Both the position numbers and the translations under genes were made by a program. DNA of 64,000 bases, taken from the NCBI GenBank assembly GCA_902585605.1, contig CACIED010000002.1:3415-67414 (forward strand), written 5' to 3'. Within the stretch, counting starts at the first letter, position 1; the number at the start of each line of letters is the position of its first letter. This DNA is from an uncultured Alphaproteobacteria bacterium (lineage in GTDB: Bacteria; Pseudomonadota; Alphaproteobacteria; HIMB59; GCA-002718135). Positions 2,590 to 34,900 of this stretch are shown here, piece by piece. The notes beneath the pieces are model-generated. The model had not been told where the DNA came from and searched no databases. It was given only the letters and a program-made list of their open reading frames with translations.

Positions 2590-3723
2590 ATGAGTGAACA
2601 TTTTTTTTGCTCTTCGCTCAGTAACATCAAAAGTGCTGAATGGAATGAATGTGTTGGAAATGATCATCCATTCTTACAATATGAATTTCTTCACGCTTTA
2701 GAAAAAAGTAATAGTGCAAATTCCAAAACAGGTTGGCAGCCATATCATTATATTGAACAAGAAAATGATAAAATTATCTCATTATGTCCTCTTTATATAA
2801 AGAACCATTCTTTTGGAGAATATATTTTTGATCATTCTTGGGCTGATGCTTATCATCGATATGGAATAAACTATTATCCAAAACTTCAATCTGCAATACC
2901 ATTTACGCCAGTTACTGGTGATAGAATAGTTTTAAACAAATCAGTAAAAGATAAAAAGGGAAAGCAAGTTCAGGTAATTAATAATATTATAAAAGAGGCA
3001 AAAAAAATAAATGTTTCTTCTCTTCATTTTAATTTTATCAATGATGCATCAAATTGGAATGATATTGATAATATTATGGTTAGATCAGGAATACAATTTC
3101 ATTGGAACAATAATGAATACAAAAATTTTAATGAATTCTTAAATGACTTATCCTCAAGAAAAAGAAAAATTATTAGGCGAGAAAGACAATGTATTGAAAA
3201 TAATAATTTAACTGTAAAATTACTTAATGGAGATGATATTAAAGAGGAGCATATAAATTTTTTTTACGATTGTTATTTAGATACAACAGGAAGAAAATGG
3301 GGTTCTACTTATTTGACCAAAGAATTTTTCTTTGAAATATTACAGAATTTTAGAAATAAAATATTACTTATAATGGCTAATCAAGAAGATAAAATGGTTG
3401 CTTCTGCAATTAATTTTCTAAGTAAAACTCATTTGTATGGACGATTATGGGGATCAAAATATGAAGTGCCATTTTTACATTTTGAACTCTGTTATTATCA
3501 AGCAATTGAATACGCAATTCAAAATAAGATTCAAATTGTAGAAGCAGGTGCTCAAGGTGAGCATAAATTACAAAGAGGTTATGCGCCTACAAAAACGTGG
3601 AGTGCTCACTGGATTAAAGATCAAGAATTTAGCAAAGCTATTCAAAAATTTCTTGATAATGAAAGTCAGCTTATTGATAACCAAAAAGAAAAATTAGAAG
3701 ATTATCTTCCTTTCAAAAATTAG
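2590..3723 (+). CDS. GNAT-fold FemAB-like protein (DUF482 type)
   Basis: HSFGEYIFDHSWADAY, PFTPVTG, LYGRLWG, LHFELCYYQAIE and EAGAQGEHKLQRGY. Its position between RidA and clpA is the usual alphaproteobacterial context. Confidence 0.88.
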   Translation: MSEHFFCSSLSNIKSAEWNECVGNDHPFLQYEFLHALEKSNSANSKTGWQPYHYIEQENDKIISLCPLYIKNHSFGEYIFDHSWADAYHRYGINYYPKLQSAIPFTPVTGDRIVLNKSVKDKKGKQVQVINNIIKEAKKINVSSLHFNFINDASNWNDIDNIMVRSGIQFHWNNNEYKNFNEFLNDLSSRKRKIIRRERQCIENNNLTVKLLNGDDIKEEHINFFYDCYLDTTGRKWGSTYLTKEFFFEILQNFRNKILLIMANQEDKMVASAINFLSKTHLYGRLWGSKYEVPFLHFELCYYQAIEYAIQNKIQIVEAGAQGEHKLQRGYAPTKTWSAHWIKDQEFSKAIQKFLDNESQLIDNQKEKLEDYLPFKN

Positions 3724-10295: not shown

Positions 10296-11309
10296 ATGTT
10301 CAAAGAACGTAAGATTCAAACAGGCATTAATAACATTTCAAATGGGTGGTTTAGAGCAAATATAGATCGCAAAAAACTTAAAGACCTCTCGAAAAGAACT
10401 GATTACGAGGGTTGGAAACATATTATAATTTTTACTATTACATTAACTGGCCTAGGTATCTTATCAGCTTACTTCTGGCAAACTTGGTGGTTTTTACCAT
10501 TCTATCTTGCGTATTGTATGTTCTGGGGTGGGGCAGACGCTATTTGGCATGAGTGTGGTCATAGAACAGCTTTTAAAACAAGAAAGTTAAATGATTTCTT
10601 TTATCATATTGCAAGCTTTATGAATAACTTTGAACCTGTAAGGTGGAGATGGAGTCATTCCCTACATCATAGTTACACCGCTTCAGTAGATCCTCACGAT
10701 TATGAAGCTGATGGAAGTATTTTTTCTAAACACACACTTTTAAGTTTTTTAATAAATTTTATTCCTGGGATTGGATTTTTTACTATACACAAATCACTAT
10801 ATGTTGAAATTTTCAAACATGCTCTCGGAATTAAGACAGATGTAATGAAAGATTGCATACCTGAAGATAAAATTAAAGATTGTATAAATAGTTCAAGAAT
10901 TTTTGTTTTTCTTTGGATATCAATAATTGCTTCTTCAATTTACTTTAGCTCATTACTTCCAATATTATTATTTTTAATTCCAAAATTTTTTGCAACTTTT
11001 AATAATATCTGGGGCATTACTCAACATATGGGTCTGCAAGAAAATACAAAAGATCATCGTCTATCTACAAGATCTGTGAGGTTGAATCCTGTATTCAGCT
11101 TCATATATTGGAAAATGGAATATCATATTGAGCATCATATGTTTCCAATGGTTCCATCTTACAATCTTCCTCAATTGTATGAAATAATAAAAGAACAATT
11201 ACCAGAACCACAAAGTTTATACTCTGCATACAAAGATATAATTCCAGCTGTTATTATAAAATCGAGAAATCCAGATTATTATATACCGGTACAAGTTCCA
11301 AATAATTAA
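10296..11309 (+). CDS. Membrane di-iron fatty-acid-desaturase-superfamily enzyme, MocD (rhizopine oxygenase)-like
   Basis: His boxes HECGH, HSLHH and YHIEHH plus TQH. HECGHRTAF..RKLND resembles the MocD subfamily; hydrophobic segments are present. Confidence 0.8.
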   Translation: MFKERKIQTGINNISNGWFRANIDRKKLKDLSKRTDYEGWKHIIIFTITLTGLGILSAYFWQTWWFLPFYLAYCMFWGGADAIWHECGHRTAFKTRKLNDFFYHIASFMNNFEPVRWRWSHSLHHSYTASVDPHDYEADGSIFSKHTLLSFLINFIPGIGFFTIHKSLYVEIFKHALGIKTDVMKDCIPEDKIKDCINSSRIFVFLWISIIASSIYFSSLLPILLFLIPKFFATFNNIWGITQHMGLQENTKDHRLSTRSVRLNPVFSFIYWKMEYHIEHHMFPMVPSYNLPQLYEIIKEQLPEPQSLYSAYKDIIPAVIIKSRNPDYYIPVQVPNN

Positions 11310-11316
11310 ACTCTAC

Positions 11317-11346
11317 TTGACACGCCTTTACCTTTAGTTTTATTAA
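11317..11346 (+). promoter_or_regulatory. Putative sigma70 promoter for the ALDH gene
   Basis: Perfect TTGACA at 11317-11322, 18-bp spacer, TATTAA at 11341-11346, ATG 9 nt later. The -10 lacks the -7 T, which is common in alphaproteobacteria. Confidence 0.45.
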
Positions 11347-11355
11347 CTAATTAAT

Positions 11356-12792
11356 ATGGAATTAAGAAATTTTATTGATGGTAAATTCATTAATTCATTA
11401 TCTAAAAAAAATATTCCCGTTTTAAATCCAGCAAATCAAAAAATTGTAGGAAATATTGATGAAGCTTTAGACGAAGAAATAAATTTAGCTTTTAATGCCG
11501 CAAAGAGGGCATTCGATCAAAGAATTTTAGTTGGAATGAATGCAAAAGATAAATCGAATATGATGAGAGCAATTGCTCAAAAACTTAGAGAGAAAAAAAA
11601 TGAAGGTGGCAAAATTCTTAGTCAAGAAAATGGTAAAACAATTAAACAGTGCATTGATGAATTTAAAGGTGCAGCCGATACTTTTGATTTTTATGCTGGA
11701 TTAACAGATAAAATAGAAAACAAATTGATACCGTCTGATCATGATACTTTAAATTATGTTGTACTGGAGCCATTTGGAGTAGCTTTACAAATTGTTCCTT
11801 GGAATTATCCAGTTTCAATTTTTTCAGGAATGGTTGCACAAAACTGGATTGTTGGAAATACTATTGTTATTAAACCTCCTGAGTTGTGCCCAATATCCTC
11901 AAACTTTTATGGTCAAATTTTTGAAGAAGTTGGAGTTCCAAAAGGTATAATAAATATTGTTCATGGTTATGGTGAAACTACTGGACGTAAATTAGTCCAA
12001 CATCCAGGAAGTGATTATATTGTTTTCACAGGTTCACCAGAAGTTGCATCTGAAATTCTCAAAGAAACAGCTGATAGAATTGTACCTACACATTTTGAAC
12101 TAGGTGGAAAATCTGCAGCAATAATTTATCCTGATGCAGATATAGATAAAGCTGTTGATAGTACTGTCAAAGGAATATTTGAACCCAATGCTGGACAAAT
12201 ATGTGTAGCAATGTCGAGAGTAATAATTCATCCTAAAATAAAAGATGAGTACATGACTAAACTTGTTGCCAAAACTAAAAAATTAAAAATTGGAGCTGGT
12301 GATGAAGAAGGGACTCAGGTAACACCACTAATTTCAACTGATCAAATGCAAAGGGTATCAAATTATGTGAAGTCAGGTATACAATCTGGAGCTACTTTAA
12401 CAATAGGTGGAGATAAAGCTGATAGAGACGATGGAAATTTTTATCAACCAACTATCTTTGATAATGTTAAAGTTGATGCAACAATTGCTCAAGAAGAAAT
12501 ATTTGGTCCTGTTACATCGATTTTTGATTTTGAAGATGAAGAAGAAGCAATAAATATAGCAAATTCAACCAAATATGGTTTAGCTTCTGGAGTATTCACG
12601 GCAGATGATCAAAAAGCTAAATGGACAGCTGATAGAATTCAAGCAGGGATAATTTGGCAAAATGATTGGTTTGTAGATGGTAAAAATCTTCCAGGCGGTG
12701 GGTATAAAAGATCGGGCTATGGAAGAGATGGTGGGATTGATGGTGTTTATAGCCACGGACAAACTAAAAGAATAAGTAAAAGACTCTACTAG
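11356..12792 (+). CDS. NAD(P)-dependent aldehyde dehydrogenase
   Basis: VPWNYP, FTGS, ELGGKS, catalytic GQICVA and EEIFGPV. Confidence 0.93.
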   Translation: MELRNFIDGKFINSLSKKNIPVLNPANQKIVGNIDEALDEEINLAFNAAKRAFDQRILVGMNAKDKSNMMRAIAQKLREKKNEGGKILSQENGKTIKQCIDEFKGAADTFDFYAGLTDKIENKLIPSDHDTLNYVVLEPFGVALQIVPWNYPVSIFSGMVAQNWIVGNTIVIKPPELCPISSNFYGQIFEEVGVPKGIINIVHGYGETTGRKLVQHPGSDYIVFTGSPEVASEILKETADRIVPTHFELGGKSAAIIYPDADIDKAVDSTVKGIFEPNAGQICVAMSRVIIHPKIKDEYMTKLVAKTKKLKIGAGDEEGTQVTPLISTDQMQRVSNYVKSGIQSGATLTIGGDKADRDDGNFYQPTIFDNVKVDATIAQEEIFGPVTSIFDFEDEEEAINIANSTKYGLASGVFTADDQKAKWTADRIQAGIIWQNDWFVDGKNLPGGGYKRSGYGRDGGIDGVYSHGQTKRISKRLY

Positions 12793-12822
12793 TTGACATT
12801 AACAAGTAATTTTAGTTAAACT
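12793..12822 (+). promoter_or_regulatory. Putative sigma70 promoter for the CUT2 ABC operon
   Basis: TTGACA at 12793-12798, 18-bp spacer, TAAACT at 12817-12822. Confidence 0.5.
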
Positions 12823-12872
12823 TTATTAATATTAATTAATATTATTTTTTTATTTAATTCATGGGAGGAATT

Positions 12873-13868
12873 ATGAAAATTATAAAATTATTTGTTATCA
12901 CTCTTTTTCTTCTTCCAGTTTCAATGCACGCTTATGCTGCTCCAACTGGACAAGATCTAGGTGATAAATGGTGCTCAGACGTAAAAATGCATTTTTACGC
13001 TGGTGGTCCTGAAGCTGGTGGCTTTGCTGGAATAGTTGCAGCAGGAGCTATGAATGCTATTAGAGACACAGGTGCAGATGCTGAAATTATATATTCAGAA
13101 TGGGATTTTGAAAAAATGGTGCGTCAACTTAGAGAATCAGTTGGACTTGGAGTGGATGCTATTGCTATGATGGGACATCCAGGAGATGAAGCTCTTATGC
13201 CTTTAGCAAAACAAGCAGCTGAAAAAGGTATCCTAATGACTTATCAAAACGTTGATCCATCAGGTGTAAGAGCAAAATACGGAGGTGGATACGTTGGAGC
13301 AAATTTAGCAACTCAAGGAAAAGCATTAGCTAGAGAAGCAATTAGGCAATTTGGTTTCAAAGCTGGGGATCATGCTATAGTAATGGTTCCTATCGGAGAT
13401 TACGCTAGAGCTCAAAGAGAAGATGGTGCAAGAATCATATTTGAAGAACATGGAATGACAGTTACTGTTCTTGATGGACAACCAAATTATGCTTCAGATC
13501 CTAATATGACTATCCCAGTTTTCTCAGCTGCATTAAATGCAAACCCTGAAACAAAAGTAATTGTTCACTCTGGAAGTGATGTAATGAATGTTGCAGAGGG
13601 TATTGCAAAAGCTGCTGGTTATGGACCTGGTGAATTACTCCAAATTGGATTTGATACGAGCCCGCAAATTATGTCGGCATTGGAAAAAGGATATGTTCAT
13701 CTAACATCAGACCAACAACCTTTCCTTCAAGGGTATCTTCCAGTTTTATCACTTTGTCAAACAGCTGTACTTGGTACTGGTGCGATAAACCAAGATACTG
13801 GTGCAGGATTTGTTGATACAAATAATTATAAAGCTGTAAAAGCTCTTGCTGATGCAGGTTTAAGATAG
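12873..13868 (+). CDS. Sugar ABC transporter substrate-binding protein (periplasmic binding protein type 1, CUT2)
   Basis: Signal peptide and Peripla_BP-like sequence (GGGYVGAN, IGFD, DQQPFLQGY). SD GGAGGAA at 12864-12870 supports ATG 12873. Confidence 0.85.
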   Translation: MKIIKLFVITLFLLPVSMHAYAAPTGQDLGDKWCSDVKMHFYAGGPEAGGFAGIVAAGAMNAIRDTGADAEIIYSEWDFEKMVRQLRESVGLGVDAIAMMGHPGDEALMPLAKQAAEKGILMTYQNVDPSGVRAKYGGGYVGANLATQGKALAREAIRQFGFKAGDHAIVMVPIGDYARAQREDGARIIFEEHGMTVTVLDGQPNYASDPNMTIPVFSAALNANPETKVIVHSGSDVMNVAEGIAKAAGYGPGELLQIGFDTSPQIMSALEKGYVHLTSDQQPFLQGYLPVLSLCQTAVLGTGAINQDTGAGFVDTNNYKAVKALADAGLR

Positions 13869-13878
13869 AAATATATTT

Positions 13879-13904
13879 TGCTAACCCATTTTAATGGGTT
13901 AGCA
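13879..13904 (+). terminator. Stem-loop after the SBP gene (mRNA stabiliser or partial terminator)
   Basis: TGCTAACCCATT-TT-AATGGGTTAGCA perfect inverted repeat, with no clear U-tract. Confidence 0.6.
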
Positions 13905-13915
13905 TTGAAAAATTT

Positions 13916-14662
13916 ATGGAAAATATCATTGAGTTAAATAATGTTACAAAAAGATTTGGCGGCATTACAGCCCTGAACAAAGCTTCATTAAAAGTAACCA
14001 AGGGTGAGGTCGTTGGTTTAATTGGTGATAATGGTGCAGGAAAATCCACTTTAATAAAAACATTAGTTGGAGTTTATAGTCCTGATGAAGGTGATATTCT
14101 TATAAGGGGAGAAAAAGTAAGTAGTTGGAATGCTCTTAAAGCTAGAGAGTCTGGCATTGAAACCGTTTTTCAAGATAGAGCTTTAACACCACAACAATCA
14201 ATAGTTAAGAATATTTTTATGGGGAAGGAGCTTAGATATCCATTTGGCTTTATAAAAGAAAAAGAACAAATTTTTGAGGCAAACAGATTAATAAGAGAAA
14301 TAGGTTTTACATCAAAATTAATAAACGCTGAGTCTCCAGTTGGAAATTTATCTGGAGGTGAAAGACAAGGAGTGGCAATAGCGAGAGCAATTTATAATAA
14401 AGCAGAGTTAATTGTTCTTGATGAACCAACAAATAACTTATCTCTAAATGAAACACAGAAAGTATTTGACTTTGTCTTAAATGTAAAAAAAACAAATAGA
14501 TCAGTTCTATTTATTGGTCATAACATTTATCATGTTTACGATATATCAGATAGATTTGTAATTTTAGATAGAGGAGAAGTTGTTCATAAACTTAACAAGA
14601 ATGATATATCTACTCCAGAAGAACTTATGAAAATAATGAGAGATACTATAAGGACGCACTAA
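13916..14662 (+). CDS. Sugar ABC transporter ATP-binding protein (single-domain CUT2 type)
   Basis: GDNGAGKST, LSGGERQ, LDEPT and GHN. Confidence 0.92.
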   Translation: MENIIELNNVTKRFGGITALNKASLKVTKGEVVGLIGDNGAGKSTLIKTLVGVYSPDEGDILIRGEKVSSWNALKARESGIETVFQDRALTPQQSIVKNIFMGKELRYPFGFIKEKEQIFEANRLIREIGFTSKLINAESPVGNLSGGERQGVAIARAIYNKAELIVLDEPTNNLSLNETQKVFDFVLNVKKTNRSVLFIGHNIYHVYDISDRFVILDRGEVVHKLNKNDISTPEELMKIMRDTIRTH

Positions 14663-15636
14663 TGAGTAACAATAATTCATATTTAAGTAACTATTTTCAC
14701 AAAAATGGAAGAGCTTTGGGAAGCATAGGATACTTTGTATTATTAATGGTAATTTTTTTAATTGGTGCACCAGAAGCTTGGATTAGACCCAACCTACATC
14801 AATCGGTATTTGTGATGATGCCAACTTTGATATTTTTAACTATTCCATTAGTTTTTTTGGTTGCATCTGGTGAAATCGATCTTTCATTTGCCTCTACTTA
14901 TGCTGTAGCAGCTTACGTTTTTGCTTTACTCGTTAAAAATGGAGTTGATCCAGCTATTTGCTTTGTACTAGGAGTTTTTACTGGCGCAGCTATTGGTGCG
15001 CTTGTTGGAACATTAATTGTTGTATTCAGACTTTCATCTCTTGTTGCATCACTTGGAGTTCTATTTTTACTAAGAGGTGTAATTCTTTTACTGACAAATA
15101 GTAGATCCATTACAATTATGGAAATAGAGAACCACTGGATATACCCTCTTTTAGTTGGAAATTTTTACGGCTTTCCAATGCAAATTTTTTGGGCAGCAAT
15201 ATTTGTAATTTTTTGTTACTATTTTTTTAACAAACATGTTTTTGGAATTCATATTCAACATGTTGGGGACAACTCTGTGAGTGCTGAACAGATGGGTATA
15301 AATGTTAATGCAGTAAAGATTAAAGCTTTCATGTTTGTTGGGATCGGTGCTGCCATAGGTGGAATATTTACAACAATGATAACTTATACATTTTTTCCCA
15401 CTCAAGGCTTTGGTTACTTATTGTTAGCTCTTGCAGCAGTTTTTGTTGGTGGCACTCCATATTGGGGAGGTTTAGGTACTATTATTGGAGCAGTTTTTGG
15501 TGTTGGAATAATTGCTTATATGGAAATTGGTATTATTGCTATTGGTTGGAGTGGTGAGTGGAGGCAATTTTTTAATGGATTGATTATATTATTAGCATTA
15601 TTAGGACATCGTTTACATGGAGAAAGAGTAAGATAA
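14662..15636 (+). CDS. Sugar ABC transporter permease (RbsC/BPD_transp_2)
   Basis: GEIDLS, highly hydrophobic sequence, VFVGGT..GG.GTIIG. Confidence 0.9.
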   Translation: MSNNNSYLSNYFHKNGRALGSIGYFVLLMVIFLIGAPEAWIRPNLHQSVFVMMPTLIFLTIPLVFLVASGEIDLSFASTYAVAAYVFALLVKNGVDPAICFVLGVFTGAAIGALVGTLIVVFRLSSLVASLGVLFLLRGVILLLTNSRSITIMEIENHWIYPLLVGNFYGFPMQIFWAAIFVIFCYYFFNKHVFGIHIQHVGDNSVSAEQMGINVNAVKIKAFMFVGIGAAIGGIFTTMITYTFFPTQGFGYLLLALAAVFVGGTPYWGGLGTIIGAVFGVGIIAYMEIGIIAIGWSGEWRQFFNGLIILLALLGHRLHGERVR

Positions 15637-15642
15637 TACCAA

Positions 15643-16425
15643 ATGACTAATGTTATCATCTGGAATGAAAATATTCATGAAGTAGAAAATAAAGAGGTTG
15701 AAAAAATCTATCCTAATGGCATTCATAATTGTATTAAAGATTTTTTATCTAATGATTCTAATTTAAAGATTAAAACCGCCACATTAAAAGAAGATCAAAA
15801 CGGCTTGAATGAAGAATTACTTAAAAATTGTAGCGTGCTCATATGGTGGGGTCATAAAGCGCATGATGAGGTATTAGATTCAACAGTTGATTTAGTACAA
15901 AGACGAGTTCTTGAGGGTATGGGCTTAATTGTATTACATTCTGGTCATCACTCTAAAATATTTAAAAGACTAATGGGTACAAATTGTAATTTAACTTGGA
16001 GAGAATTTGGTGAAAAAGAGAGGTTATGGATATGCAATCCAGGACATCCAATTTGTGATGGTTTAGAGCCTTATTTTGAAATAGAGATGGAAGAAATGTA
16101 TGGAGAACCTTTTCAAGTACCATCGCCCGATGAGACACTTTTTACAAGCTGGTTTGAAGGTGGGGAAACTTTTAGATCAGGATTACTCTATAAAAGAGGA
16201 AATGGTCAAATATTCTATTTTCGACCAGGTCACGAAGCGTATCCAACTTATCATAATATAAATATTCAAAAAGTAATAAAAAATGCAATACATTTTGTAA
16301 AACAGAAAAATAAAGCTTTGTGGGAAGACATACACTCTCCCACTCCCAAAAGTAATAGATCAAAACCTATTGAAAAAATTAATAAGAAAGGTTTTAGTGT
16401 AGGACATCCTACAGAAGAAAAATGA
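15643..16425 (+). CDS. thuA: Trehalose utilization protein ThuA
   Basis: IWNENIHE, YPNGIH, WWGHKAH, LHSGHHSK, EEMYGEPF and FRPGHEAYPTY, all characteristic of ThuA. Confidence 0.9.
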   Translation: MTNVIIWNENIHEVENKEVEKIYPNGIHNCIKDFLSNDSNLKIKTATLKEDQNGLNEELLKNCSVLIWWGHKAHDEVLDSTVDLVQRRVLEGMGLIVLHSGHHSKIFKRLMGTNCNLTWREFGEKERLWICNPGHPICDGLEPYFEIEMEEMYGEPFQVPSPDETLFTSWFEGGETFRSGLLYKRGNGQIFYFRPGHEAYPTYHNINIQKVIKNAIHFVKQKNKALWEDIHSPTPKSNRSKPIEKINKKGFSVGHPTEEK

Positions 16426-16426
16426 A

Positions 16427-17482
16427 ATGAAAATTGGTATTGTCGGAACAGGAAATATTTCATCAAGGCATTTTGAAGAATTTAACAATATAACAAATGT
16501 CAACGTTGAAGCTGTTTGTGATACAAATAAAAAAAATTTAGAAAAATTTTTAACAAATTATAAAAATACAGATATCAGAGGGTATTTAAGCTTAGATGAA
16601 ATGCTTGAAAAAGAAAAAACATTTGATGGTATTAGTAATACAACACCTGATAAATTTCATAAAGAAACTACACTACAAATTTTAAAAAGTGGATATAATG
16701 TTTTTTGTGAAAAACCACTTGCTGAAAATTATAGTGATGCAAAAGATATGGTTTATGCGGCAGTACAATCCAAAAAAATTAATATGGTTAATTTTACTTA
16801 TAGGGAATCAAGCGCATATCAAAAATTAGTAGAAATATTAAAATCTGGAGAGATCGGAAATCCTAGACACGTAAGCGCTTGTTATTATCAGTCATGGCTT
16901 GCAAGTAACAAATGGGGTGATTGGAGAAAAGAGGATAAGTGGTTATGGAGACTTTCTACGAAACATGGAAGTAATGGTGCTTTAGGAGACACGGGTGTTC
17001 ATATTTTTGATTTTGCTGTGAATGCTGTAGGAGATATCAGAGAAATATGTGCTGATTTAAAAACATATTTCGATAAAGGAAATAAAATAAAAGAATATAC
17101 CCTAGATGCAAATGATGGATTTAATTCCTTAGTTAGATTTGAAAATGGAGCTATTGGAACAGTAACCAATACAAGATTTGCAACAGGACATGCAAACTCC
17201 TTAATTCTAGAAGTATTTTGCACTAAAGGCGCTGTAAAGGTTGAGTTAGATGAGGAAAGAACAAAATGGTCGACGCTTCATATTTGTATAAATGAAAATA
17301 TTAATAAAATGTCTTGGGATAAAATAGAGTGTCCAAAAACACCTAGCAATTATCAAAATTTTGTACAGTCAATAAAAACAAACTTGAATATGCAGCCAGA
17401 TTTTTATCAAGGTGCTAAAATTCAAAATATTATTGATAAATGTATAGAAAGTAATGAAATTAATAGCTGGGTTAAAGTTTAA
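16427..17482 (+). CDS. thuB: Gfo/Idh/MocA oxidoreductase, ThuB-like (putative glycoside 3-dehydrogenase)
   Basis: CEKPLA, WLWRLSTKHGSNGALGDTGVHIFD; directly after thuA. Confidence 0.75.
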   Translation: MKIGIVGTGNISSRHFEEFNNITNVNVEAVCDTNKKNLEKFLTNYKNTDIRGYLSLDEMLEKEKTFDGISNTTPDKFHKETTLQILKSGYNVFCEKPLAENYSDAKDMVYAAVQSKKINMVNFTYRESSAYQKLVEILKSGEIGNPRHVSACYYQSWLASNKWGDWRKEDKWLWRLSTKHGSNGALGDTGVHIFDFAVNAVGDIREICADLKTYFDKGNKIKEYTLDANDGFNSLVRFENGAIGTVTNTRFATGHANSLILEVFCTKGAVKVELDEERTKWSTLHICINENINKMSWDKIECPKTPSNYQNFVQSIKTNLNMQPDFYQGAKIQNIIDKCIESNEINSWVKV

Positions 17483-17526
17483 TAGAACAAAATAGTTAAT
17501 TTTTTACCAAAAAAAATTATTATAAA

Positions 17527-17554
17527 TTGACAATATGTAATCATGGGATATTTG
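17527..17554 (+). promoter_or_regulatory. Putative promoter upstream of aglE
   Basis: TTGACA at 17527-17532 with only a weak -10 candidate (TATTTG, 17549-17554); SD TAGGAGGA at 17566-17573. Confidence 0.35.
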
Positions 17555-17576
17555 TTTTTATAAATTAGGAGGATTA

Positions 17577-18887
17577 ATGAATTACACAATTAAAAGTTTA
17601 ATAATGTTTATCTCTTCATTATTTCTAAGTTTGTCTGCATTTGCAGGTGGTCATTCTTATTCTGGTCCAGATCTAAGTGGTCAAAAAATTACTGTTTTTG
17701 GTCCATGGTTAGCACCACAAGATGATGACTTTAGAGATGTTGTTTCAATTTTTGAAAAAGCTACTGGAGCAACTGTTGAGTACGGTGGTTCAGATAGTTT
17801 TGAACAACAAGTAATGATTGACTTGAAAGCTGGAAGTGCTGCAGATGCTGTTATTTTCCCACAACCTGGATTAGCCGCTAATGCAGCAGCAATGGGAGGA
17901 TTAGTTCCTCTTGGTGATGATATAAAGGAAATGGTTTTAGATGATTATGCTGCTGGACAATCATGGGTAGATCTAACAACTTATGCTGATGAAAATGGTG
18001 TTGATCAATTCATGGGAGTATTTTTTAGAGTAAATGTAAAAAGTTTAGTTTGGTATTCTCCAGATAACTTTGAAGATAATGGTTATGAAATTCCAGAAAC
18101 AATGGAAGAGCTGATTGCATTAACTGATCAAATGGCTTCAGATGGAAATACACCCTGGTGTATTGGTTTGGGTTCTGGTGCAGCTACTGGCTGGCCTGCA
18201 ACTGACTGGATGGAAGACATTATGCTAAGAACTCATTCACCAGAGGTCTATGACATGTGGGTTTCTAATGAAATGCCATTTAATGATCCACGAGTTATTG
18301 AAGCAATGGATACTTTTGGTTCATTTGCCTTAAATGATAGTTATGTAAATGGTGGAAGTAAAGCTGTTGCAACTACAGATTTTAGAGATGCTCCAAATGG
18401 ATTATTTACATCTCCAGCTGAGTGTATGATGCATAGACAAGCTAGCTTTATCCCAGCTTTCTTTCCTGAAGGATCTGAGGCAGGAGTTGATTATGACTTC
18501 TTCTATTTCCCAGCATTTGCGGGTAAAGATCTTGGAAAGCCAGTTTTAGGTGCAGGTACTCTTGTAGCTGCAACCAATGATAATGCTGCAACTATTGAGT
18601 TCATGAAATTTTTATTACACCCTGAACCAAATGAAAGATTTATGGAAAAAGGAGGTTTCTTAACTCCTCATAAAGGTGTTGATAAAAATAAATACTCAAG
18701 TGAAACATTTAAGGGTCTTCACGATATTCTTTTGGGCGCTACTACATTTAGATTTGATGGATCAGATCTAATGCCTGGTGCTATCGGCGCTGGAACTTTC
18801 TGGACTGGTATGGTTGATTATACCAATGGAAAATCAGCAAAAGATGTAGCAGATGCAATCCAAGACAGTTGGGATGCTATTAAGTAA
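17577..18887 (+). CDS. aglE: Alpha-glucoside ABC transporter substrate-binding protein AglE-like
   Basis: FPQPGL, NVKSLVWY, WCIGLGSGAATGWPATDWMED, HRQASFI and FRFDGSDLMPGAIGAG. Confidence 0.85.
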   Translation: MNYTIKSLIMFISSLFLSLSAFAGGHSYSGPDLSGQKITVFGPWLAPQDDDFRDVVSIFEKATGATVEYGGSDSFEQQVMIDLKAGSAADAVIFPQPGLAANAAAMGGLVPLGDDIKEMVLDDYAAGQSWVDLTTYADENGVDQFMGVFFRVNVKSLVWYSPDNFEDNGYEIPETMEELIALTDQMASDGNTPWCIGLGSGAATGWPATDWMEDIMLRTHSPEVYDMWVSNEMPFNDPRVIEAMDTFGSFALNDSYVNGGSKAVATTDFRDAPNGLFTSPAECMMHRQASFIPAFFPEGSEAGVDYDFFYFPAFAGKDLGKPVLGAGTLVAATNDNAATIEFMKFLLHPEPNERFMEKGGFLTPHKGVDKNKYSSETFKGLHDILLGATTFRFDGSDLMPGAIGAGTFWTGMVDYTNGKSAKDVADAIQDSWDAIK

Positions 18888-18901
18888 TTTAAAATAATTA
18901 C

Positions 18902-18936
18902 CAGGCGAACAAATGACTTGTTCGCCTGTTTTTTTT
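18902..18936 (+). terminator. Intrinsic terminator between aglE and aglF
   Basis: 11-bp perfect stem CAGGCGAACAA/TTGTTCGCCTG, 5-nt loop, then 8 T. Confidence 0.85.
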
Positions 18937-18952
18937 ATATATTGACTTTTCA

Positions 18953-19936
18953 ATGACCATCCTAAATTTATTTTTTGTTGTTTTTTTAGGAATATTATTT
19001 TTTGTAAGTTATTTTCATATTTCTAACTTAGTTCTAGATACTTATGGTGAGAAAAGTGTAAAAAGATATAATTTTGAAAATTCAATAAGAGTAATAATTT
19101 TTATTGCACCTGCTTTTATTGTTTTATTTATATTTATTTTATATCCAGTTTTTGAAACTGTTAGACTTAGTTTTTATGATAAATTTGGAAGAGAATTTGT
19201 TGGATTTTACAATTATAAATGGGCAATTAGTGATCCTGAGTTCAGAAGAAGCATATTAAACAATTTAATTTGGTTACTTGTTGTGCCAACATTAAGCACT
19301 TTTTTTGGATTGGTTATTGCAAAGCTAGCAGATAATATTTGGTGGGGATCAATTGCAAAATCAATAATATTTATGCCTATGGCAATATCATTTGTTGGTG
19401 CTGGTGTTATATGGAAATTTATTTATGAATACAGAGGGCCTGGAGATACCCAAATAGGGCTACTTAATGCAATTATAGTTTCATTTGGCTACGAACCTCA
19501 AGCCTGGATAACGATTCCATTTTGGAATAACTTTTTTTTAATGGCTATAATGATTTGGATTCAAACAGGATTGGCGCTGGTAATATTTAGTGCTGCTTTA
19601 AGAAGTATACCTAAAGAAATGCTGGAAGCTGCAAGAATTGATGGAGCTAGTGAATTAAAAATATTTTTTTCTATTATTATACCCTATTTAGAACAAACAA
19701 TTCTTGTCATTTGGACTTTGATAACAATTATTGTTCTAAGAATTTTTGATATTATTTTTGCTATGACAAATGGGGAATGGCAAACTGGAGTATTAGCTAA
19801 TTTAATGTATGATTGGATGTTTAGGGGTGGAGGAGACTCTGGAAGAGGTAGTGTTCTAGCTATAGTAATTATGATTGGGGTAATACCAATCCTAGCTTGG
19901 AATTTATATAAACATAGACAGGAACAAAAAATATAA
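18953..19936 (+). CDS. aglF: Alpha-glucoside ABC permease AglF-like
   Basis: PMAISFVGAGVIWKFIY, QIGLLNA and the EAA loop (EAARIDGASE). Confidence 0.85.
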   Translation: MTILNLFFVVFLGILFFVSYFHISNLVLDTYGEKSVKRYNFENSIRVIIFIAPAFIVLFIFILYPVFETVRLSFYDKFGREFVGFYNYKWAISDPEFRRSILNNLIWLLVVPTLSTFFGLVIAKLADNIWWGSIAKSIIFMPMAISFVGAGVIWKFIYEYRGPGDTQIGLLNAIIVSFGYEPQAWITIPFWNNFFLMAIMIWIQTGLALVIFSAALRSIPKEMLEAARIDGASELKIFFSIIIPYLEQTILVIWTLITIIVLRIFDIIFAMTNGEWQTGVLANLMYDWMFRGGGDSGRGSVLAIVIMIGVIPILAWNLYKHRQEQKI

Positions 19937-21075
19937 TGAAGAAAATTTCATTATCATCAATCTTATCACAATTATTATTATTATTTTTTGTAATTATATG
20001 GATCATTCCGACGTTTGGACTTTTTATAAGTTCTCTAAGAGATAAAGATTTACTAGCTATCAGTGGCTGGTGGACATCTTTGACTACAACTGAAATAAAT
20101 GAAATTTATAGAATGCCTGGAATGAATGCACAAATTGAAGAAGGGGGATATTTTAAAATTAAAGGAAATTTATTTGAAGAAAATTCTGGAAAAAAAATCC
20201 AAAGTTTTGGAATAACTTCAAAAAAAATTAATGAATTCAATGTTAGTGAGGTAGCAGTTTTTAAAGATGAGAGCGAAGTAACTGTAGATGAAGATGGAAA
20301 TTATGAATGGCTATCAAAGGAGGCATTTAAAAAGAAAAAAGGTAAAAGGTTATTTACAACATCTTTAAGTCCACCTTCATTTACTTTTGAAAATTATAGA
20401 GAAGTTTTATTTAAAGAAGGAATTGGAAGAGCATTTATTAATACAATGGCTGTTGCCCTACCATCTACTTTAATTCCATTAATAATATGTTCTTTTTTTG
20501 CATATTCATTAACATGGATGAAATTTTATGGAAGGGATACACTTTTAGCAATAATAATTGCATCTCTGGTTGTTCCACTTCAAATGTCTCTAATACCAAT
20601 ACTTACAATTTATAATGATTTTGGTGCATTATTTGGTGTTGCAGCTAAATCATATCCAGGAGTATGGATGGCTCATACTGGTTTTGGATTAGCATCAACT
20701 ACCTTTTTATTAAGAAATTTTTTAAAAAGTTTACCTAATGAAATGATGGAGGCAGCTAAAGTTGATGGTGCGTCTCATTATGATATTTTTTTACGCATAA
20801 TTATACCTTTATCAATACCAGCCTTTGCATCAATATTTATATTACAATTTTTATGGTGCTGGAATGATCTATTAGTTGGTCTTGTATTTTTGGATCAAGT
20901 TCCAAGTGAAATAATTTTAACTGCTAAGTTAAAAGAGTTACTTGGATCTAGAGGAGAAAATTGGGAAATCTTAACAACTGGGGCTTTTGTGTCAATGACA
21001 GTTCCTTTATTTATCTTTTTTGCCTTACAGAGATATTTTATAAGAGGTTTAGTAGCTGGATCAGTTAAGGGTTGA
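19936..21075 (+). CDS. aglG: Alpha-glucoside ABC permease AglG-like
   Basis: SGWW followed by a periplasmic insertion, VPLQM, EAAKVDGAS and WNDLLV. Confidence 0.85.
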   Translation: MKKISLSSILSQLLLLFFVIIWIIPTFGLFISSLRDKDLLAISGWWTSLTTTEINEIYRMPGMNAQIEEGGYFKIKGNLFEENSGKKIQSFGITSKKINEFNVSEVAVFKDESEVTVDEDGNYEWLSKEAFKKKKGKRLFTTSLSPPSFTFENYREVLFKEGIGRAFINTMAVALPSTLIPLIICSFFAYSLTWMKFYGRDTLLAIIIASLVVPLQMSLIPILTIYNDFGALFGVAAKSYPGVWMAHTGFGLASTTFLLRNFLKSLPNEMMEAAKVDGASHYDIFLRIIIPLSIPAFASIFILQFLWCWNDLLVGLVFLDQVPSEIILTAKLKELLGSRGENWEILTTGAFVSMTVPLFIFFALQRYFIRGLVAGSVKG

Positions 21076-21128
21076 ACGTTAAAACATATTGATTTTTGTT
21101 TGAATTTATCGTTAAATGAAATGATATT

Positions 21129-21150
21129 TGTATGATGATGTTTTCATACA
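21129..21150. promoter_or_regulatory. Inverted repeat TGTATGA-N8-TCATACA upstream of aglK (operator or RNA hairpin)
   Basis: Perfect 7-bp arms in the 103-bp aglG-aglK gap, downstream of a TTGATT-N17-TTAAAT promoter-like motif at 21089-21117. Confidence 0.4.
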
Positions 21151-21178
21151 CTTGAAAGATCGCTCAAAGGAGGATGAA

Positions 21179-22258
21179 GTGGCAGATATAAATATAAATA
21201 CTGTTAATAAATATTTTGGAGACGTTCACGTAATTAAAGACGTATCTCTAGATATCAAAAGTCAATCATTCACAGTTCTAGTTGGACCAAGTGGTTGTGG
21301 AAAATCGACTATGTTAAGAATGATTGCAGGACTAGAAGATATAAATTCAGGTACAATTTCAATTGATGGTCAAGTAGTTAATGATTTGCCACCAAAACAA
21401 AGAAATATTGCAATGGTGTTTCAGTCATATGCATTATACCCTCACATGACTGTATTTGATAACATGGCTTTTGGTTTGAAATTAGAAAAAAGATCAAAAG
21501 ATGAAATTAATGAAAGAGTTAATGAGGCAGCAAGAATTCTTCAAATAGAAGATTATCTTCAAAGAAAGCCAAAGCAACTTTCAGGTGGTCAAAGACAACG
21601 TGTTGCTATTGGAAGAGCAATTACAAGAAAGCCAAAAGTTTTCTTATTTGATGAACCACTTTCAAACCTTGATGCTGCATTAAGAGTTCAAATGAGAGTT
21701 GAATTAGCAAAGCTTCATAATGAACTAGAAGCAACAATGATTTACGTTACACACGATCAGACAGAAGCAATGACTTTAGCTGATGATATTGTTGTTCTTG
21801 ATACAGGTATCGTTTCACAAAAAGGATCTCCACTTGAACTTTATGACAGGCCCAATAATATGTTCGTAGGTGGATTTATTGGATCACCAAAAATGAACTT
21901 TATTTCTAGTAAGATATTAAGCAAAAGTTCTGATGCTACAGAAGTTGATATTATGGGAATGTCAAAAATATCAGTTTCAAAAATGTCAGCATCCTCCTCA
22001 GAGGGTGATTCAGTAACGCTAGGTATTAGACCTGAACACTTAGTAGTAAATGGTGACTCAGATGGATCTTGGGAAAGTAAAGTATTTGTTGTTGAAAAAC
22101 TTGGTGACGTTACTTACCTATACCTTGAAAAAGATGGAGAGCCATTAGTAGCTGAAACTGAAGGACATTCAGAAATTAAAGTTGGAGATACTGTAAAAGT
22201 TGGTTTTCCTGCTGGAAGATGCCAGTTATTTGACAGTTCAGGACAAGCATTTAAATAA
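21179..22258 (+). CDS. aglK: Carbohydrate ABC ATP-binding protein (MalK/AglK type) with TOBE domain
   Basis: GPSGCGKS, FQSYALYPH, LSGGQRQR and FDEPLSNLD. GTG 21179 follows SD AGGAGGA (21168-21174), so the track start at 21128 is too far upstream. Confidence 0.92.
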   Translation: MADININTVNKYFGDVHVIKDVSLDIKSQSFTVLVGPSGCGKSTMLRMIAGLEDINSGTISIDGQVVNDLPPKQRNIAMVFQSYALYPHMTVFDNMAFGLKLEKRSKDEINERVNEAARILQIEDYLQRKPKQLSGGQRQRVAIGRAITRKPKVFLFDEPLSNLDAALRVQMRVELAKLHNELEATMIYVTHDQTEAMTLADDIVVLDTGIVSQKGSPLELYDRPNNMFVGGFIGSPKMNFISSKILSKSSDATEVDIMGMSKISVSKMSASSSEGDSVTLGIRPEHLVVNGDSDGSWESKVFVVEKLGDVTYLYLEKDGEPLVAETEGHSEIKVGDTVKVGFPAGRCQLFDSSGQAFK

Positions 22259-31884: not shown

Positions 31885-33096
31885 TTATTTATATTCTTCT
31901 AACTCTTCAGCAGCTTCAGCTACTAAATCAGCTGGATCACCTTCACCAAGAATTGCTCCCTGGATCATATTATTCATAACTGATTGAAAAGCTTTATAAT
32001 CAACAAATAGAGGTTCTGGTCCACCATCTCCAATTGCATCAATAAACATCATCCAATAGTCATCATTGTAAGGTGCTTCACTACCTATTGAATCGTATTG
32101 CATAATTGGAGTTAATCCCCACTCAGTATCTAATTTATATTGCCATTTTGGAGAAGTAACCATTGCTGCAAATTTATTAGCAAGCTCTTCATTTCCGGTA
32201 TTATTAAAAACAGCAATACTGTCAGTAATTAATAATGTTCCTTGCTCACCTTGTGGTCCAGCAGGAATTCTAACAGTTTTCATATTTAGATCTTCATTGT
32301 GAGTACCTCGTCCCCATGGGCCGTCTATGTACATTGCAATTTTTTTATCATTAAGAAGATCTCTTAATTGAGATCTTTCATATGCTAAAGGACCCTCTTG
32401 AGCTACGTTTGCTAATTTTCCATAAAAAGCAAGAGCTTCAACTGCATTTGAACTATTTAAAGTAATTGTATTGGTATCAGGATCAATAACTTGACCTCCA
32501 TTACTGTATAAATAATTCAGGAACTGATGCATGGTATTATCAAAATCCTTACCAGTTAATCCAATTCCTGCAACACCAGGTACATTATTTGTAACAGCTT
32601 CAGCCATTGTATATAATTCATCCCATGTTTTAGGACCTTCACATGCAACACCCGCTTGCTCTAGTAAATCACAATTCATAAATAAAGCTTTTGTAGAAAA
32701 AGCTCTTGGATATCCCCAAACCTTACCCATGTGAGATACAGTATTTAAAATACCAGGTTGATACATGCCAATTTGTGACTGAGGTATGTCAACATTAATG
32801 ATATGACCATTTTCAGCAAGTCCTTTTAATGTTCTAGAACCAACATATGCTAAATCTACAGGATCTCCCGCAATAGCCAAGTTTATTACTTTGTCCTGAC
32901 ATGTACCCCAGGGAACAGCTTCCCATTTAATAGTAACTCCAGGATTGGCACTTTCGAATTCTGCTGCAACATCCATATCCGCTTGTCTAATTTCACCGCC
33001 ACATAGAATTCCATGTAATTCCTGTGAATTTGCATTGAAACCAAAAAACAAAAAAAATATGAAAGAAGCGATTGAAGTAGTTTTTAAAAATTTCAT
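31885..33096 (-). CDS. Carbohydrate ABC transporter substrate-binding protein (CUT1)
   Basis: Signal peptide, YVGSRTL, PRAFSTKALF and FLNYLYSNGG. SD GGAGGAAA at 33098-33105. Confidence 0.88.
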   Translation of the reverse strand: MKFLKTTSIASFIFFLFFGFNANSQELHGILCGGEIRQADMDVAAEFESANPGVTIKWEAVPWGTCQDKVINLAIAGDPVDLAYVGSRTLKGLAENGHIINVDIPQSQIGMYQPGILNTVSHMGKVWGYPRAFSTKALFMNCDLLEQAGVACEGPKTWDELYTMAEAVTNNVPGVAGIGLTGKDFDNTMHQFLNYLYSNGGQVIDPDTNTITLNSSNAVEALAFYGKLANVAQEGPLAYERSQLRDLLNDKKIAMYIDGPWGRGTHNEDLNMKTVRIPAGPQGEQGTLLITDSIAVFNNTGNEELANKFAAMVTSPKWQYKLDTEWGLTPIMQYDSIGSEAPYNDDYWMMFIDAIGDGGPEPLFVDYKAFQSVMNNMIQGAILGEGDPADLVAEAAEELEEYK

Positions 33097-33165
33097 GTTT
33101 CCTCCAAATTATTTACTACCGTACCACTTTAATATGAATACAATCAAGCAAATTTATTTAATATA

Positions 33166-34005
33166 TTAGTTTTTTACAGCCCCAGCTGTTAAACCTTCTA
33201 CAATATATTTTTGTAAAAATATAAAGACTATTAAAACTGGGAATACTCCAACAATAGAAGCTGCCATCATTTCATTCCATTTCACAGATTGGTAACCAAT
33301 GAATTCAGTTAAACCAGATACTATTGGCATATATTCTCTAATTGAATTAAATGTTATAGCAAAGAGGAATTGTTGAGCGTAAGCTTGAATAAAAGCATAT
33401 ATAGCAGTTACAGCAATGCCTGGAGTGCTCAATGGTGCAATAATTCTGAAAAGAATATCCATTCTCGAAGCTCCATCACAATATGCTGCCTCCTCTAGCT
33501 CAACCGGAATTTTTTCAAAATATGCTTTCAATAGCCATATTGAAGTTGGAATACAAAATGCTATTCCTGGTACAATCATTGCAAAATATGTATTTAAAAG
33601 GTCAAAATATCTTAATAGTTTAAATAGAGGTATTAATAATACCGCTCCAGAAAACATATTTACTGCCAAAAGAACCCATAAACTACCTTGTTTGAATGGG
33701 AAATTAAATCTTGCGTATGAGTATGCAGCAGGAATTACAAATAAAAGTGTAAAAAAAGTTACTGTAATAGCCATAAAAAAACTATTAAAAATATATCTTC
33801 CTAAAAGAGGAACTGTGTTCCACATTTCTCTATATGCCCAAAAAGATAGGTCATCAGAATAAAATTGATAAGGAGATCTAAATATGTGCTTTAAAGGTCG
33901 TAAAGACGCGTAAAACATTTCAACAAAGGGTAATAAGATAAATATAAAAAAAACAGTTATGCTTAGATATAAAAATATTTTTAAAGGTAAGCTATATTTA
34001 TCCAT
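33166..34005 (-). CDS. Carbohydrate ABC permease (CUT1, MalG-like)
   Basis: NMFSGAVLLIPLF and EEAAYCDGASR. Confidence 0.9.
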   Translation of the reverse strand: MDKYSLPLKIFLYLSITVFFIFILLPFVEMFYASLRPLKHIFRSPYQFYSDDLSFWAYREMWNTVPLLGRYIFNSFFMAITVTFFTLLFVIPAAYSYARFNFPFKQGSLWVLLAVNMFSGAVLLIPLFKLLRYFDLLNTYFAMIVPGIAFCIPTSIWLLKAYFEKIPVELEEAAYCDGASRMDILFRIIAPLSTPGIAVTAIYAFIQAYAQQFLFAITFNSIREYMPIVSGLTEFIGYQSVKWNEMMAASIVGVFPVLIVFIFLQKYIVEGLTAGAVKN

Positions 34006-34900
34006 GAGATACCTTTTTGTTTATTCTTGAAAGTAAATAAAAATATGCAATCGCGAACGTTGATATCATAATTACTATCATTACTGCTCTAGCAGATCCC
34101 TTACCAAACTTATAATTACCCAATGCCATTTTGTAAGTATCTATAATCAGAGTTGTTGTTGCTCCTCTTGGTCCGCCTTCTGTTAAAATATAAATTATAT
34201 CAAAAGAGACAAAAGTAGATACAGCGGAAATTAGAGACATAGTTATAATTACCGGTGTTAATTGAGGTAGTGTTATGTGATACCATCTACTAAATCTACC
34301 AGCTCCATCACAATAAGCAGCTTCATATAAATCTCTTGGAATTGCTTGCATACCAGCCAAGAAAAAAAGTGTAACAAATGGTACGCCAACCCAGATATCG
34401 GTTACCATTGTTGCAATAAAAGCACTATTTTTATAAGCCAAAAAACTAAATGGTCCATCTAGAATTCCTAATCGAATTCCAATACCGGATAGTATTCCAA
34501 AATGACCATTGTAAACCCACATCCAGCCAAGTGCACCAATTGCAATCGGCACAACCCAAGGAGGTAAAACTAAAATTCTAAAGAATGATCTACCTCTCAA
34601 ACTTGCATTGAGCAAAACAGCCCCTATCATTCCTATTATTAACTTTAGTAAAACTGAGAAAAAGGTCCATACAAATGTTCGTATAGCTATTTTACTAAAT
34701 TTAGAACTAGATAGAAGTTTTTCATAATTTTCAAAACCAACGTAGTCTTCACCGGCTATACTAGAATTAGTAAATGATAATCTAAATGTTTCTATCAAAG
34801 GCCATCCCACTATACACAAAAGGTATATAACTGCTGGAGCTATTAGAATGTATGCTAAAAAATATTGTGAGTTATATGAATTTAATTTATTTTTTTTCAT
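33998..34900 (-). CDS. Carbohydrate ABC permease (CUT1, MalF-like)
   Basis: YVGFENY, PPWVVP, YEAAYCDGAGRF and TEGGP. Confidence 0.9.
   Translation of the reverse strand: MKKNKLNSYNSQYFLAYILIAPAVIYLLCIVGWPLIETFRLSFTNSSIAGEDYVGFENYEKLLSSSKFSKIAIRTFVWTFFSVLLKLIIGMIGAVLLNASLRGRSFFRILVLPPWVVPIAIGALGWMWVYNGHFGILSGIGIRLGILDGPFSFLAYKNSAFIATMVTDIWVGVPFVTLFFLAGMQAIPRDLYEAAYCDGAGRFSRWYHITLPQLTPVIITMSLISAVSTFVSFDIIYILTEGGPRGATTTLIIDTYKMALGNYKFGKGSARAVMIVIMISTFAIAYFYLLSRINKKVSHG

Follow-up and report, generated by a model that had tools for sequence, protein, structure and literature searches.

A MocD-like membrane oxygenase gene in a putative portable cassette for methylated sugars or glycosides in a SAR11-like marine bacterium

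The window analyzed here, a stretch of 64,000 nucleotides (nt) in which positions are counted from the first letter, carries the gene of a MocD-like membrane di-iron oxygenase of the FA_desaturase superfamily (DES; 10296–11309, + strand, 337 residues) at the head of a run of sugar-transport and sugar-processing genes. The window has approximately 30% G+C and is read as SAR11-like because its nearest relatives are single-cell genomes labeled uncultured Alphaproteobacteria or Pelagibacteraceae. On the same strand, DES is followed by an NAD(P)-dependent aldehyde dehydrogenase (ALDH; 11356–12792, 478 residues; Aldedh, E 5e-147), a periplasmic cluster-B sugar-type binding protein with a signal peptide (SBP2; 12861–13868, 335 residues; Peripla_BP_4), an ABC ATPase with a single nucleotide-binding domain (NBD; 13916–14662, 248 residues; ABC_tran), and a CUT2-type permease (14662–15636, 324 residues; BPD_transp_2). 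The original prediction described these five as co-oriented genes, and open reading frames (ORFs) were found at exactly those positions, all on the + strand. Its end point of 15636 did not hold, since the co-oriented run continues with a ThuA-like protein (15643–16425, + strand; PF06283, E 2e-30; 316 bits to the ThuA-like PDB entry 1T0B) and a Gfo/Idh/MocA-family NAD(P) sugar dehydrogenase identified by Pfam and PDB matches (Gfo; 16427–17482, + strand), the likely ThuB-like partner of ThuA. Both are cytoplasmic proteins without a signal peptide. Only 6 bp separate the permease from ThuA and 1 bp ThuA from Gfo; a CUT1 sugar importer follows (SBP1, two permeases, and a MalK-type ATPase; 17577–22258, + strand), also co-oriented but not necessarily a member of the same unit. 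Scans of the window for Rfam families and for tRNAs gave no match, and a promoter scan gave a result no better than shuffled sequence.

SBP2, the single-NBD ATPase, and the CUT2 permease form a binding-protein-dependent importer, the closest named models of its components being those of ribose, arabinose, allose, and AI-2 transporters. The earlier label of a CUT2 importer fitted the Peripla_BP_4 binding protein and the BPD_transp_2 permease but not the ATPase, which is not the fused, double-NBD protein of ~500 residues: its 248 residues aligned to positions ~1–240 only of the ~500-position RbsA, AraG, and XylG models. A half-size ATPase likewise accompanies SBP2 homologs of 53–54% identity at two further loci (L087, 8144–12940; L088, 8779–13916), where the trio of binding protein, single-NBD ATPase, and permease is kept. 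The partners of the trio at these loci are a GMC oxidoreductase plus a creatininase, or LacI plus an AP_endonuc_2 (xylose-isomerase-like TIM) enzyme; these enzymes, once more, are of types that serve in 3-keto-sugar routes.

Analysis of DES placed it in the FA_desaturase superfamily, with a PF00487 score of 125 bits (E 5e-36) against a cut-off of 29.7 and the three His boxes of the family (HX3-4H, HX2-3HH, HX2-3HH) present as HECGH at residue 85, HSLHH at 121, and HIEHH at 277, all conserved among its relatives. Hydropathy indicated two hydrophobic hairpins typical of the family (residues ~42–80 and ~197–238). A sequence search against solved structures returned no match even at E 1. Pfam assigns no more than FA_desaturase, and public labels of relatives read ‘fatty acid desaturase’ or ‘stearoyl-CoA 9-desaturase’, as would be expected if DES were an ordinary acyl-lipid desaturase or hydroxylase merely lying beside a sugar transporter. 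We regard this as very improbable. Identity to MocD of Phyllobacterium zundukense and Rhizobium leguminosarum was 38% over the full length (E 1e-82 to 1e-85), while the NCBIfam DesA and DesB models gave 27–44 bits against a cut-off of 500. A tblastn search of DES against plasmid records returned 278 rhizobial records with a full-length homolog (33–40% identity, E down to 1e-61) and then, below a gap, only partial matches to Ralstonia and Priestia desaturases (23–36%). In a neighbor-joining tree of 39 sequences (custom distance, with bootstrap), the marine clade and MocD were split in 100% of bootstraps from the lipid desaturases, of which only two served as outgroups; the marine DES clade was recovered in 98%, DES together with its paralog DES2 in 96.5%, and these together with MocD in 79%. 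The Ralstonia outgroup desaturase sits between ACP and KAS genes; the conserved partners of DES across bacterial classes are a Rieske ferredoxin, a PanB-like enzyme, the importer, and glycoside enzymes, with no acyl-lipid genes among them. The family is small: only 91 clusters at E ≤ 1e-30 were recovered when 1.84 billion representatives were searched exhaustively with HMMER. By these comparisons of sequence, DES is assigned to a MocD-type oxygenase clade, and the earlier expectation that the enzyme is unlikely to be a lipid desaturase was borne out.

The membrane di-iron His-box fold, served by a small iron–sulfur carrier and an NAD(P)H reductase, recalls in general features the AlkB/rubredoxin alkane hydroxylase and XylM-type monooxygenases, but those enzymes act on hydrophobic substrates, whereas the conserved neighbors of DES all serve soluble carbohydrates. 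Evidence on the electron donor came from fusions and from neighboring genes. Relatives of DES at 34–40% identity include, by Pfam, fusions to a Rieske domain, to a Rieske domain plus an FNR-type NAD-binding domain, and to rubredoxin plus rubredoxin reductase (P0365, P0368, P0370, P0371, P0383, P0390, P0495, and P0500). At sister loci, a divergently oriented gene for a 102-residue Rieske ferredoxin lies ~100 bp upstream of DES (12 marine loci and further contigs). This protein is 49–53% identical to MocE, its best NCBIfam match is the MocE family (116 bits vs. a cut-off of 136), and its homologs on the inspected contigs all adjoin DES. The fusions and the adjacent Rieske genes together show that the family consists of electron-fed oxygenases whose direct donor is a small iron–sulfur protein. 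As the original prediction had noted, neither mocE nor mocF is visible in the window: tblastn with MocE, the marine Rieske protein, and MocF gave zero matches in the 64 kb, and motif scans of the whole stretch for Rieske, plant-type ferredoxin, 4Fe–4S, and rubredoxin signatures found none. For the clade of the window, the donor must then have its gene outside the locus or be some other carrier.

To place the locus among its relatives, 147 relatives of DES were taken from a scan of one genome per species, 80 loci were kept (L numbers), and synteny was read by tblastn. The order DES–(ALDH)–SBP2–ATPase–permease was found in essentially all of the 80 loci long enough to show it: with ALDH in every SAR11-type locus of sufficient length, and as DES–SBP2–ATPase–permease in Rhodobacteraceae (L062, L065, L067, and L069) and in a gammaproteobacterial metagenome-assembled genome (L074). 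Since this synteny is kept across related loci, the arrangement is not due to chance, and the association with the importer on which the original prediction relied is shared by SAR11 subclades, MarineAlpha5, Rhodobacteraceae, and one gammaproteobacterium. Across classes, SBP2 was 85–99% identical and DES less conserved (62–69%). Contigs found via the Rieske protein revealed a complete unit, in which the Rieske gene is divergent from a run of DES–ALDH–PanB-like–SBP2–ATPase–permease–GH4. At L092, this unit lies within the CUT1 operon, with the second permease on one side and MalK on the other, the position at which the cassette also stands in other SAR11 subclades relative to the neighboring CUT1 operon; at L089–L091 it occupies an unrelated chromosomal site without CUT1, flanked by GATase and DUF179/DsbD genes. 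Having been found both inside a CUT1 operon and at an unrelated site, and in at least three chromosomal contexts overall, the eight-gene unit behaves as a portable cassette. Its PanB-like gene (PF02548) was present in 19 sister loci, between DES/ALDH and SBP2; in the window it is absent and SBP2 directly follows ALDH.

Several variants of the cassette were observed. Within the clade of the window, the importer occurs as two alleles (L026, L029, L031, L035, L038–L040, L042, and L044–L049 vs. L001–L025), with identities of 95–99% vs. ~73% for SBP2 and 96–99% vs. 58–65% for the permease. ThuA and Gfo also occur as two alleles (~90% vs. 65%/50%) that combine independently of those of the importer, which suggests modular diversification of specificity. 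At a SAR11-like locus (L072, 2478–17521), two DES genes stand side by side and are accompanied by a divergent PanB-like gene, two CUT1 importers, a GH127 glycosidase, and MalK; this seems to be another cassette that follows the same logic of oxygenase, PanB, importer, and glycosidase. At L073, DES adjoins XdhC/MobA genes of Mo-cofactor maturation. The recurrence of DES paralogs with importers, PanB-like and GH127 genes at the former locus, or with Mo-cofactor genes at the latter, reinforces the carbohydrate, one-carbon (C1), and aldehyde themes.

The clade of the window stands apart from its sisters. Like 46 similar loci, the window is without the Rieske, PanB-like, and GH4 genes, and no iron–sulfur carrier is encoded in its 64 kb, as might be expected if DES had here been cut off from its Rieske partner and were a decaying remnant or had taken on another role, the importer and ThuA plus Gfo handling an ordinary unmethylated sugar. 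This scenario is improbable in view of the condition of the gene. The His boxes of DES are intact, every locus of the clade has kept the gene, many relatives in the clade carry a second DES paralog, and the dN/dS of DES in the Rieske-less clade, against six relatives, was 0.05–0.09, similar to neighboring housekeeping genes and in line with the values for UDP-glucose dehydrogenase, ThuA, and Gfo. DES of the clade of the window is under strong purifying selection. Contig depth in four marine metatranscriptome assemblies, a rough guide since DNA carry-over is possible, pointed the same way: contigs of these covered DES and ALDH, DES at a depth like that of ALDH, and both at depths comparable to or above that of the permease. 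Depths were far higher for SBP2, the highest in the cassette, and SBP1, and very low for ThuA and Gfo. Strong hairpins lie directly after both binding-protein genes. The first, an inverted repeat with an 11-bp stem directly after the SBP2 stop codon (13879–13904), is a possible attenuator or RNA-stability element, and the second is at 18902–18928; contig depth drops ~10-fold or more at these hairpins, toward the ATPase and permease genes. The second DES paralog (49–51% identity, His boxes intact) lies between Gfo and the CUT1 binding-protein gene in most close relatives (L001, ~17222–18200, and 30+ SAR11 loci). It is absent from the window, where 95 bp (17482–17577) separate Gfo from SBP1, and from a few relatives such as L003.

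The gene order of the rhizobial moc clusters was compared. In P. zundukense, whose MocD gene belongs to a genuine moc cluster, a sugar binding protein and a Gfo/Idh/MocA gene lie on one strand, and the other carries genes for a MocR-type regulator, the desaturase-family protein, a 2Fe–2S ferredoxin of the MocE family, an FAD oxidoreductase, and a PanB-like protein (annotated ‘3-methyl-2-oxobutanoate hydroxymethyltransferase’), as well as purU. The run DES–MocE–MocF–PanB-like recurs in R. leguminosarum. The marine PanB-like proteins are 42–44% identical to those linked to moc. The PanB family uses methylene-tetrahydrofolate (methylene-THF), and the adjacency of purU to the PanB-like gene in Phyllobacterium fits a role of the latter in C1 capture. 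Full-text searches on SAR11 and rhizopine or MocD-type genes gave incidental mentions only, and neither these nor searches on pinitol demethylase and on PanB with formaldehyde gave any account of the cassette or of the role of the PanB-like partner.

An enzyme able to oxidize an aldehyde accompanies DES in the two main sampled lineages, as ALDH in SAR11-type loci and as a three-subunit Mo-hydroxylase (FAD, 2Fe–2S, and Mo subunits) upstream of DES in Rhodobacteraceae, which have no ALDH there. The gammaproteobacterial locus showed neither, with only ~340 bases present upstream of DES. In ALDH, the catalytic Glu (ELGG) and Cys (GQIC) motifs are intact; it scored below every NCBIfam equivalog cut-off, the best being betaine-aldehyde dehydrogenase (BADH; 435 bits vs. 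669), and its best PDB matches were BADHs (~340 bits). The Mo-hydroxylase was likewise under all named NCBIfam equivalog cut-offs and scored with glyceraldehyde-dehydrogenase and aldehyde-oxidoreductase models; it might be an aldehyde oxidizer, the electron source for the Rieske protein, or both. At L065 (5908–9913), and also at L062, L063, L067, L069, L071, and L080, a MocE-like Rieske gene is co-oriented with the Mo-hydroxylase genes and directly followed by them.

These aldehyde oxidizers bear on which carbon is hydroxylated. Betaine-aldehyde and aminoaldehyde dehydrogenases, which ALDH resembles, act on C2–C5 aldehydes, the clade of the window keeps ALDH and has lost the PanB-like gene, and the model scores of the Mo-hydroxylase include glyceraldehyde dehydrogenase; DES could accordingly hydroxylate a non-methyl carbon, for example in the O-dealkylation of a glyceryl, lactyl, or other C2–C3 ether or aglycone of an imported glycoside, with ALDH oxidizing a C2–C3 aldehyde and not formaldehyde. 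We consider this rather unlikely, since the PanB-like partner, from a methylene-THF-using family, and purU in the moc context favor a C1 unit, and the sole genetically assigned reaction in the clade is an O-demethylation.

The nature of the imported compound was approached through the enzymes following the permease. Among the 62 loci reaching far enough past the permease, this slot held a GH4 gene in 13 and ThuA plus Gfo in 49, with no locus holding both or neither. GH4 glycosidases work through oxidation of the sugar at C3, and the GH4 proteins of the cassette were closest to MelA-type alpha-galactosidase models and to the LplD alpha-galacturonidase. In the window, a ThuA-domain protein adjoins a Gfo/Idh/MocA partner and an ABC sugar importer, as do the ThuAB-type pairs. 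ThuAB oxidize disaccharides to 3-keto derivatives (PMC8121099). Since GH4 and ThuA plus Gfo alternate in one slot, the latter pair is probably a functional part of the cassette, and the cargo is likely a sugar or glycoside. Judged by gene content, every version of the cassette closes with cytoplasmic enzymes predicted to attack sugars via C3 oxidation, ThuA plus Gfo here and GH4 elsewhere. The thuEFGKAB system for trehalose and sucrose isomers in rhizobia and Agrobacterium also has a ThuA and Gfo-family pair adjoining an ABC sugar importer; the pair in the window, by contrast, follows a CUT2-type importer and a MocD-like oxygenase, is exchangeable with GH4, and is ThuB-like by context. The alternation of GH4 and ThuA plus Gfo is a clean natural experiment as to whether two routes of C3 oxidation are functionally equivalent.

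Among known systems, MocDEF comes closest; it is part of the cluster for catabolism of the rhizopine 3-O-methyl-scyllo-inosamine in Sinorhizobium, Rhizobium, and Phyllobacterium. Involvement of mocDEF in rhizopine catabolism has been described (PMC10107442), and homologs of these genes were reportedly induced by pinitol-rich root exudate (PMC5789663). In common with MocDEF, the marine loci have a MocD homolog, MocE-type Rieske and PanB-like genes in sister cassettes, and a link to a Peripla_BP_4 importer and a Gfo/Idh/MocA dehydrogenase. The cargo might accordingly be an O-methylated cyclitol or aminocyclitol (pinitol- or rhizopine-like), with Gfo a MocA/IolG-type inositol dehydrogenase and the cassette a marine analog of moc/iol. 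The best NCBIfam match of SBP2 was indeed the rhizopine binding protein (NF052284) and the best solved relatives of Gfo were scyllo-inositol and inositol dehydrogenases (scyllo-inositol/L-glucose dehydrogenase, 5YA8, and levoglucosan dehydrogenase, 6A3F, being the top PDB matches). Moreover, on a marine Aestuarium plasmid DES–Rieske–PanB-like stands beside a ‘rhizopine-binding protein’, inositol 2-dehydrogenase, and iolC. We nevertheless judge a cyclitol unlikely. SBP2 reached only 69 bits against the cut-off of 420 and was 23% identical to MocB, and Gfo was 24% identical to MocA, with levoglucosan dehydrogenase as its best NCBIfam model, far under the cut-off, followed by inositol 2-dehydrogenase and glycoside 3-dehydrogenase models. 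By these scores and Pfam scans, orthologs of MocB, MocA, MocC, and MocR were not found in the window; neither a GntR/MocR-type regulator nor an IolE-like gene appeared in Pfam scans of the ORFs at 3720–24203 and of 20 of the ~40 larger ORFs at 24–64 kb, and no iol, mocC, or mocR gene was seen in the scanned window ORFs or in the marine loci examined. Further differences from MocDEF are the absence of MocF from every marine locus and of a Rieske gene from the window, the free-living oligotrophic host, and the additions of the marine cassette: ALDH (the Mo-hydroxylase trio in Rhodobacteraceae) and GH4 or ThuA plus Gfo. These additions suggest a sugar or glycoside and not an aminocyclitol; likewise, GH4 as the alternative occupant of the slot and the pairing of Gfo with ThuA both point to glycosides. 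With GH4 or ThuA plus Gfo filling one slot and no iol genes seen, a methylated sugar or glycoside is likelier than a cyclitol.

On balance, we favor, with moderate confidence, the interpretation of the window locus as the pared-down form of a portable catabolic cassette of marine bacteria whose substrate is an O-methylated sugar or a small methylated glycoside; for this cassette, we infer both the substrate and the demethylation chemistry. The O-demethylation proposed in the original prediction gained support from the kinship with MocD, the conserved link to the importer, the Rieske and PanB-like genes of sister loci, and the fusions, whereas the cyclitol that it had placed among the candidate substrates lost ground to a sugar or glycoside. 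In the mechanism envisaged, the imported compound would meet DES at the cytoplasmic face of the membrane, where DES would hydroxylate the O-methyl group with O2 and two electrons, which in sister cassettes would arrive through the MocE-type Rieske ferredoxin. Collapse of the resulting hemiacetal would yield a free sugar hydroxyl and formaldehyde. ALDH would then oxidize the released aldehyde, a part that the Mo-hydroxylase may play in Rhodobacteraceae, while the PanB-like enzyme of fuller cassettes probably hands the C1 unit on to tetrahydrofolate for THF-linked oxidation. The C1 unit could thereby feed the C1-oxidation energy metabolism of SAR11. The demethylated sugar or glycoside would be processed by ThuA plus Gfo (GH4 elsewhere) via a 3-keto intermediate, for cleavage or entry into central metabolism.

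Several observations weigh against the favored interpretation. A MocF-type reductase was absent from the window and all marine loci (tblastn, E 1e-5), leaving the electron chain incomplete, and the window cassette in addition lacks Rieske, PanB-like, and GH4 genes. Rather than a recognized formaldehyde dehydrogenase, ALDH is a generic enzyme of BADH type. The ligand of SBP2 could not be read from its relatives: PDB sequence searches and Foldseek searches with an AlphaFold2 model (pLDDT 87) returned generic glucose, ribose, inositol, and arabinose binders at 16–25% identity, the top Foldseek matches being glucose/ribose/inositol-type binding proteins at ~20%. ThuA and Gfo, with their very low transcript-contig depth, could belong to the neighboring thuEFGK-like CUT1 operon. 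The phylogenetic placement of DES comes from a neighbor-joining tree with only two lipid-desaturase outgroups. To our knowledge, the role of MocD as a demethylase rests on genetics and not on a purified enzyme.

What is new is the recruitment of a MocD/MocE-type oxygenase into a portable marine sugar-uptake cassette, of which the window would hold a stripped-down form. O-methyl sugars are recognized constituents of the sea's dissolved organic matter (DOM) and algal glycans, while SAR11 bacteria are usually seen as poor in carbohydrate catabolism and as oxidizers of the methyl groups that small nitrogen and sulfur compounds carry. A more general and distinctly tentative proposal, less probable than the interpretation of the window itself, is that one portable demethylation cassette, of MocD type and not of P450 type, is common to SAR11, marine Rhodobacteraceae, and at least one uncultured gammaproteobacterium and serves for dissolved methyl sugars and glycosides taken up by high-affinity ABC import. 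The methyl carbon would enter THF- or ALDH-linked C1 oxidation and the sugar 3-keto chemistry, and in Rhodobacteraceae the Mo-hydroxylase may recycle electrons from aldehyde oxidation to the oxygenase in place of MocF. If true, this would constitute a previously unrecognized sink for the methyl-sugar fraction of marine DOM, extend the methyl-oxidation strategy of SAR11 to carbohydrates, and supply candidate genes for O-methyl sugar turnover. The poorly characterized MocD family would gain a second, globally abundant context. It gains, in any case, a conserved set of partners in the Rieske ferredoxin, the PanB-like enzyme, and an aldehyde oxidizer.

The closest marine functional analog is the P450-dependent demethylation of 6-O-methyl-D-galactose in Bacteroidota. 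In Zobellia and Formosa, a P450, a ferredoxin, and a ferredoxin reductase are reported to carry out this reaction (PMC6292453, PMC9400963, PMC10033563). The system resembles the proposed one in converting an algal methyl sugar to the free sugar and formaldehyde by oxidative O-demethylation, with linked handling of aldehyde or formaldehyde. It differs in using a soluble heme P450 instead of a membrane di-iron His-box enzyme and SusCD within a polysaccharide utilization locus instead of an ABC importer, and in its host and habitat.

Outside the cassette, SBP1 of the neighboring CUT1 importer was expected to correspond to SAR11_0769, the glucose-binding protein described by Clifton et al. (PMC11485210), an identification that was rejected because the best PDB match of SBP1 was AcbH, at E 8e-11. 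Further downstream, the window holds a second carbohydrate-type island (26216–50639), unusual for SAR11. It includes a CUT1 binding protein with permeases (31885–34900) and a GH20 hexosaminidase (36066–37928), together with a NagA-like amidohydrolase, a SIS protein, a GMC oxidoreductase, an MR_MLE enolase-superfamily enzyme, and a galactokinase-like GHMP kinase. Also encoded there are a TauD dioxygenase, three more Gfo/Idh/MocA genes, an altronate/galactarate dehydratase, an Fe-ADH, a second ALDH, and a GS-like enzyme.

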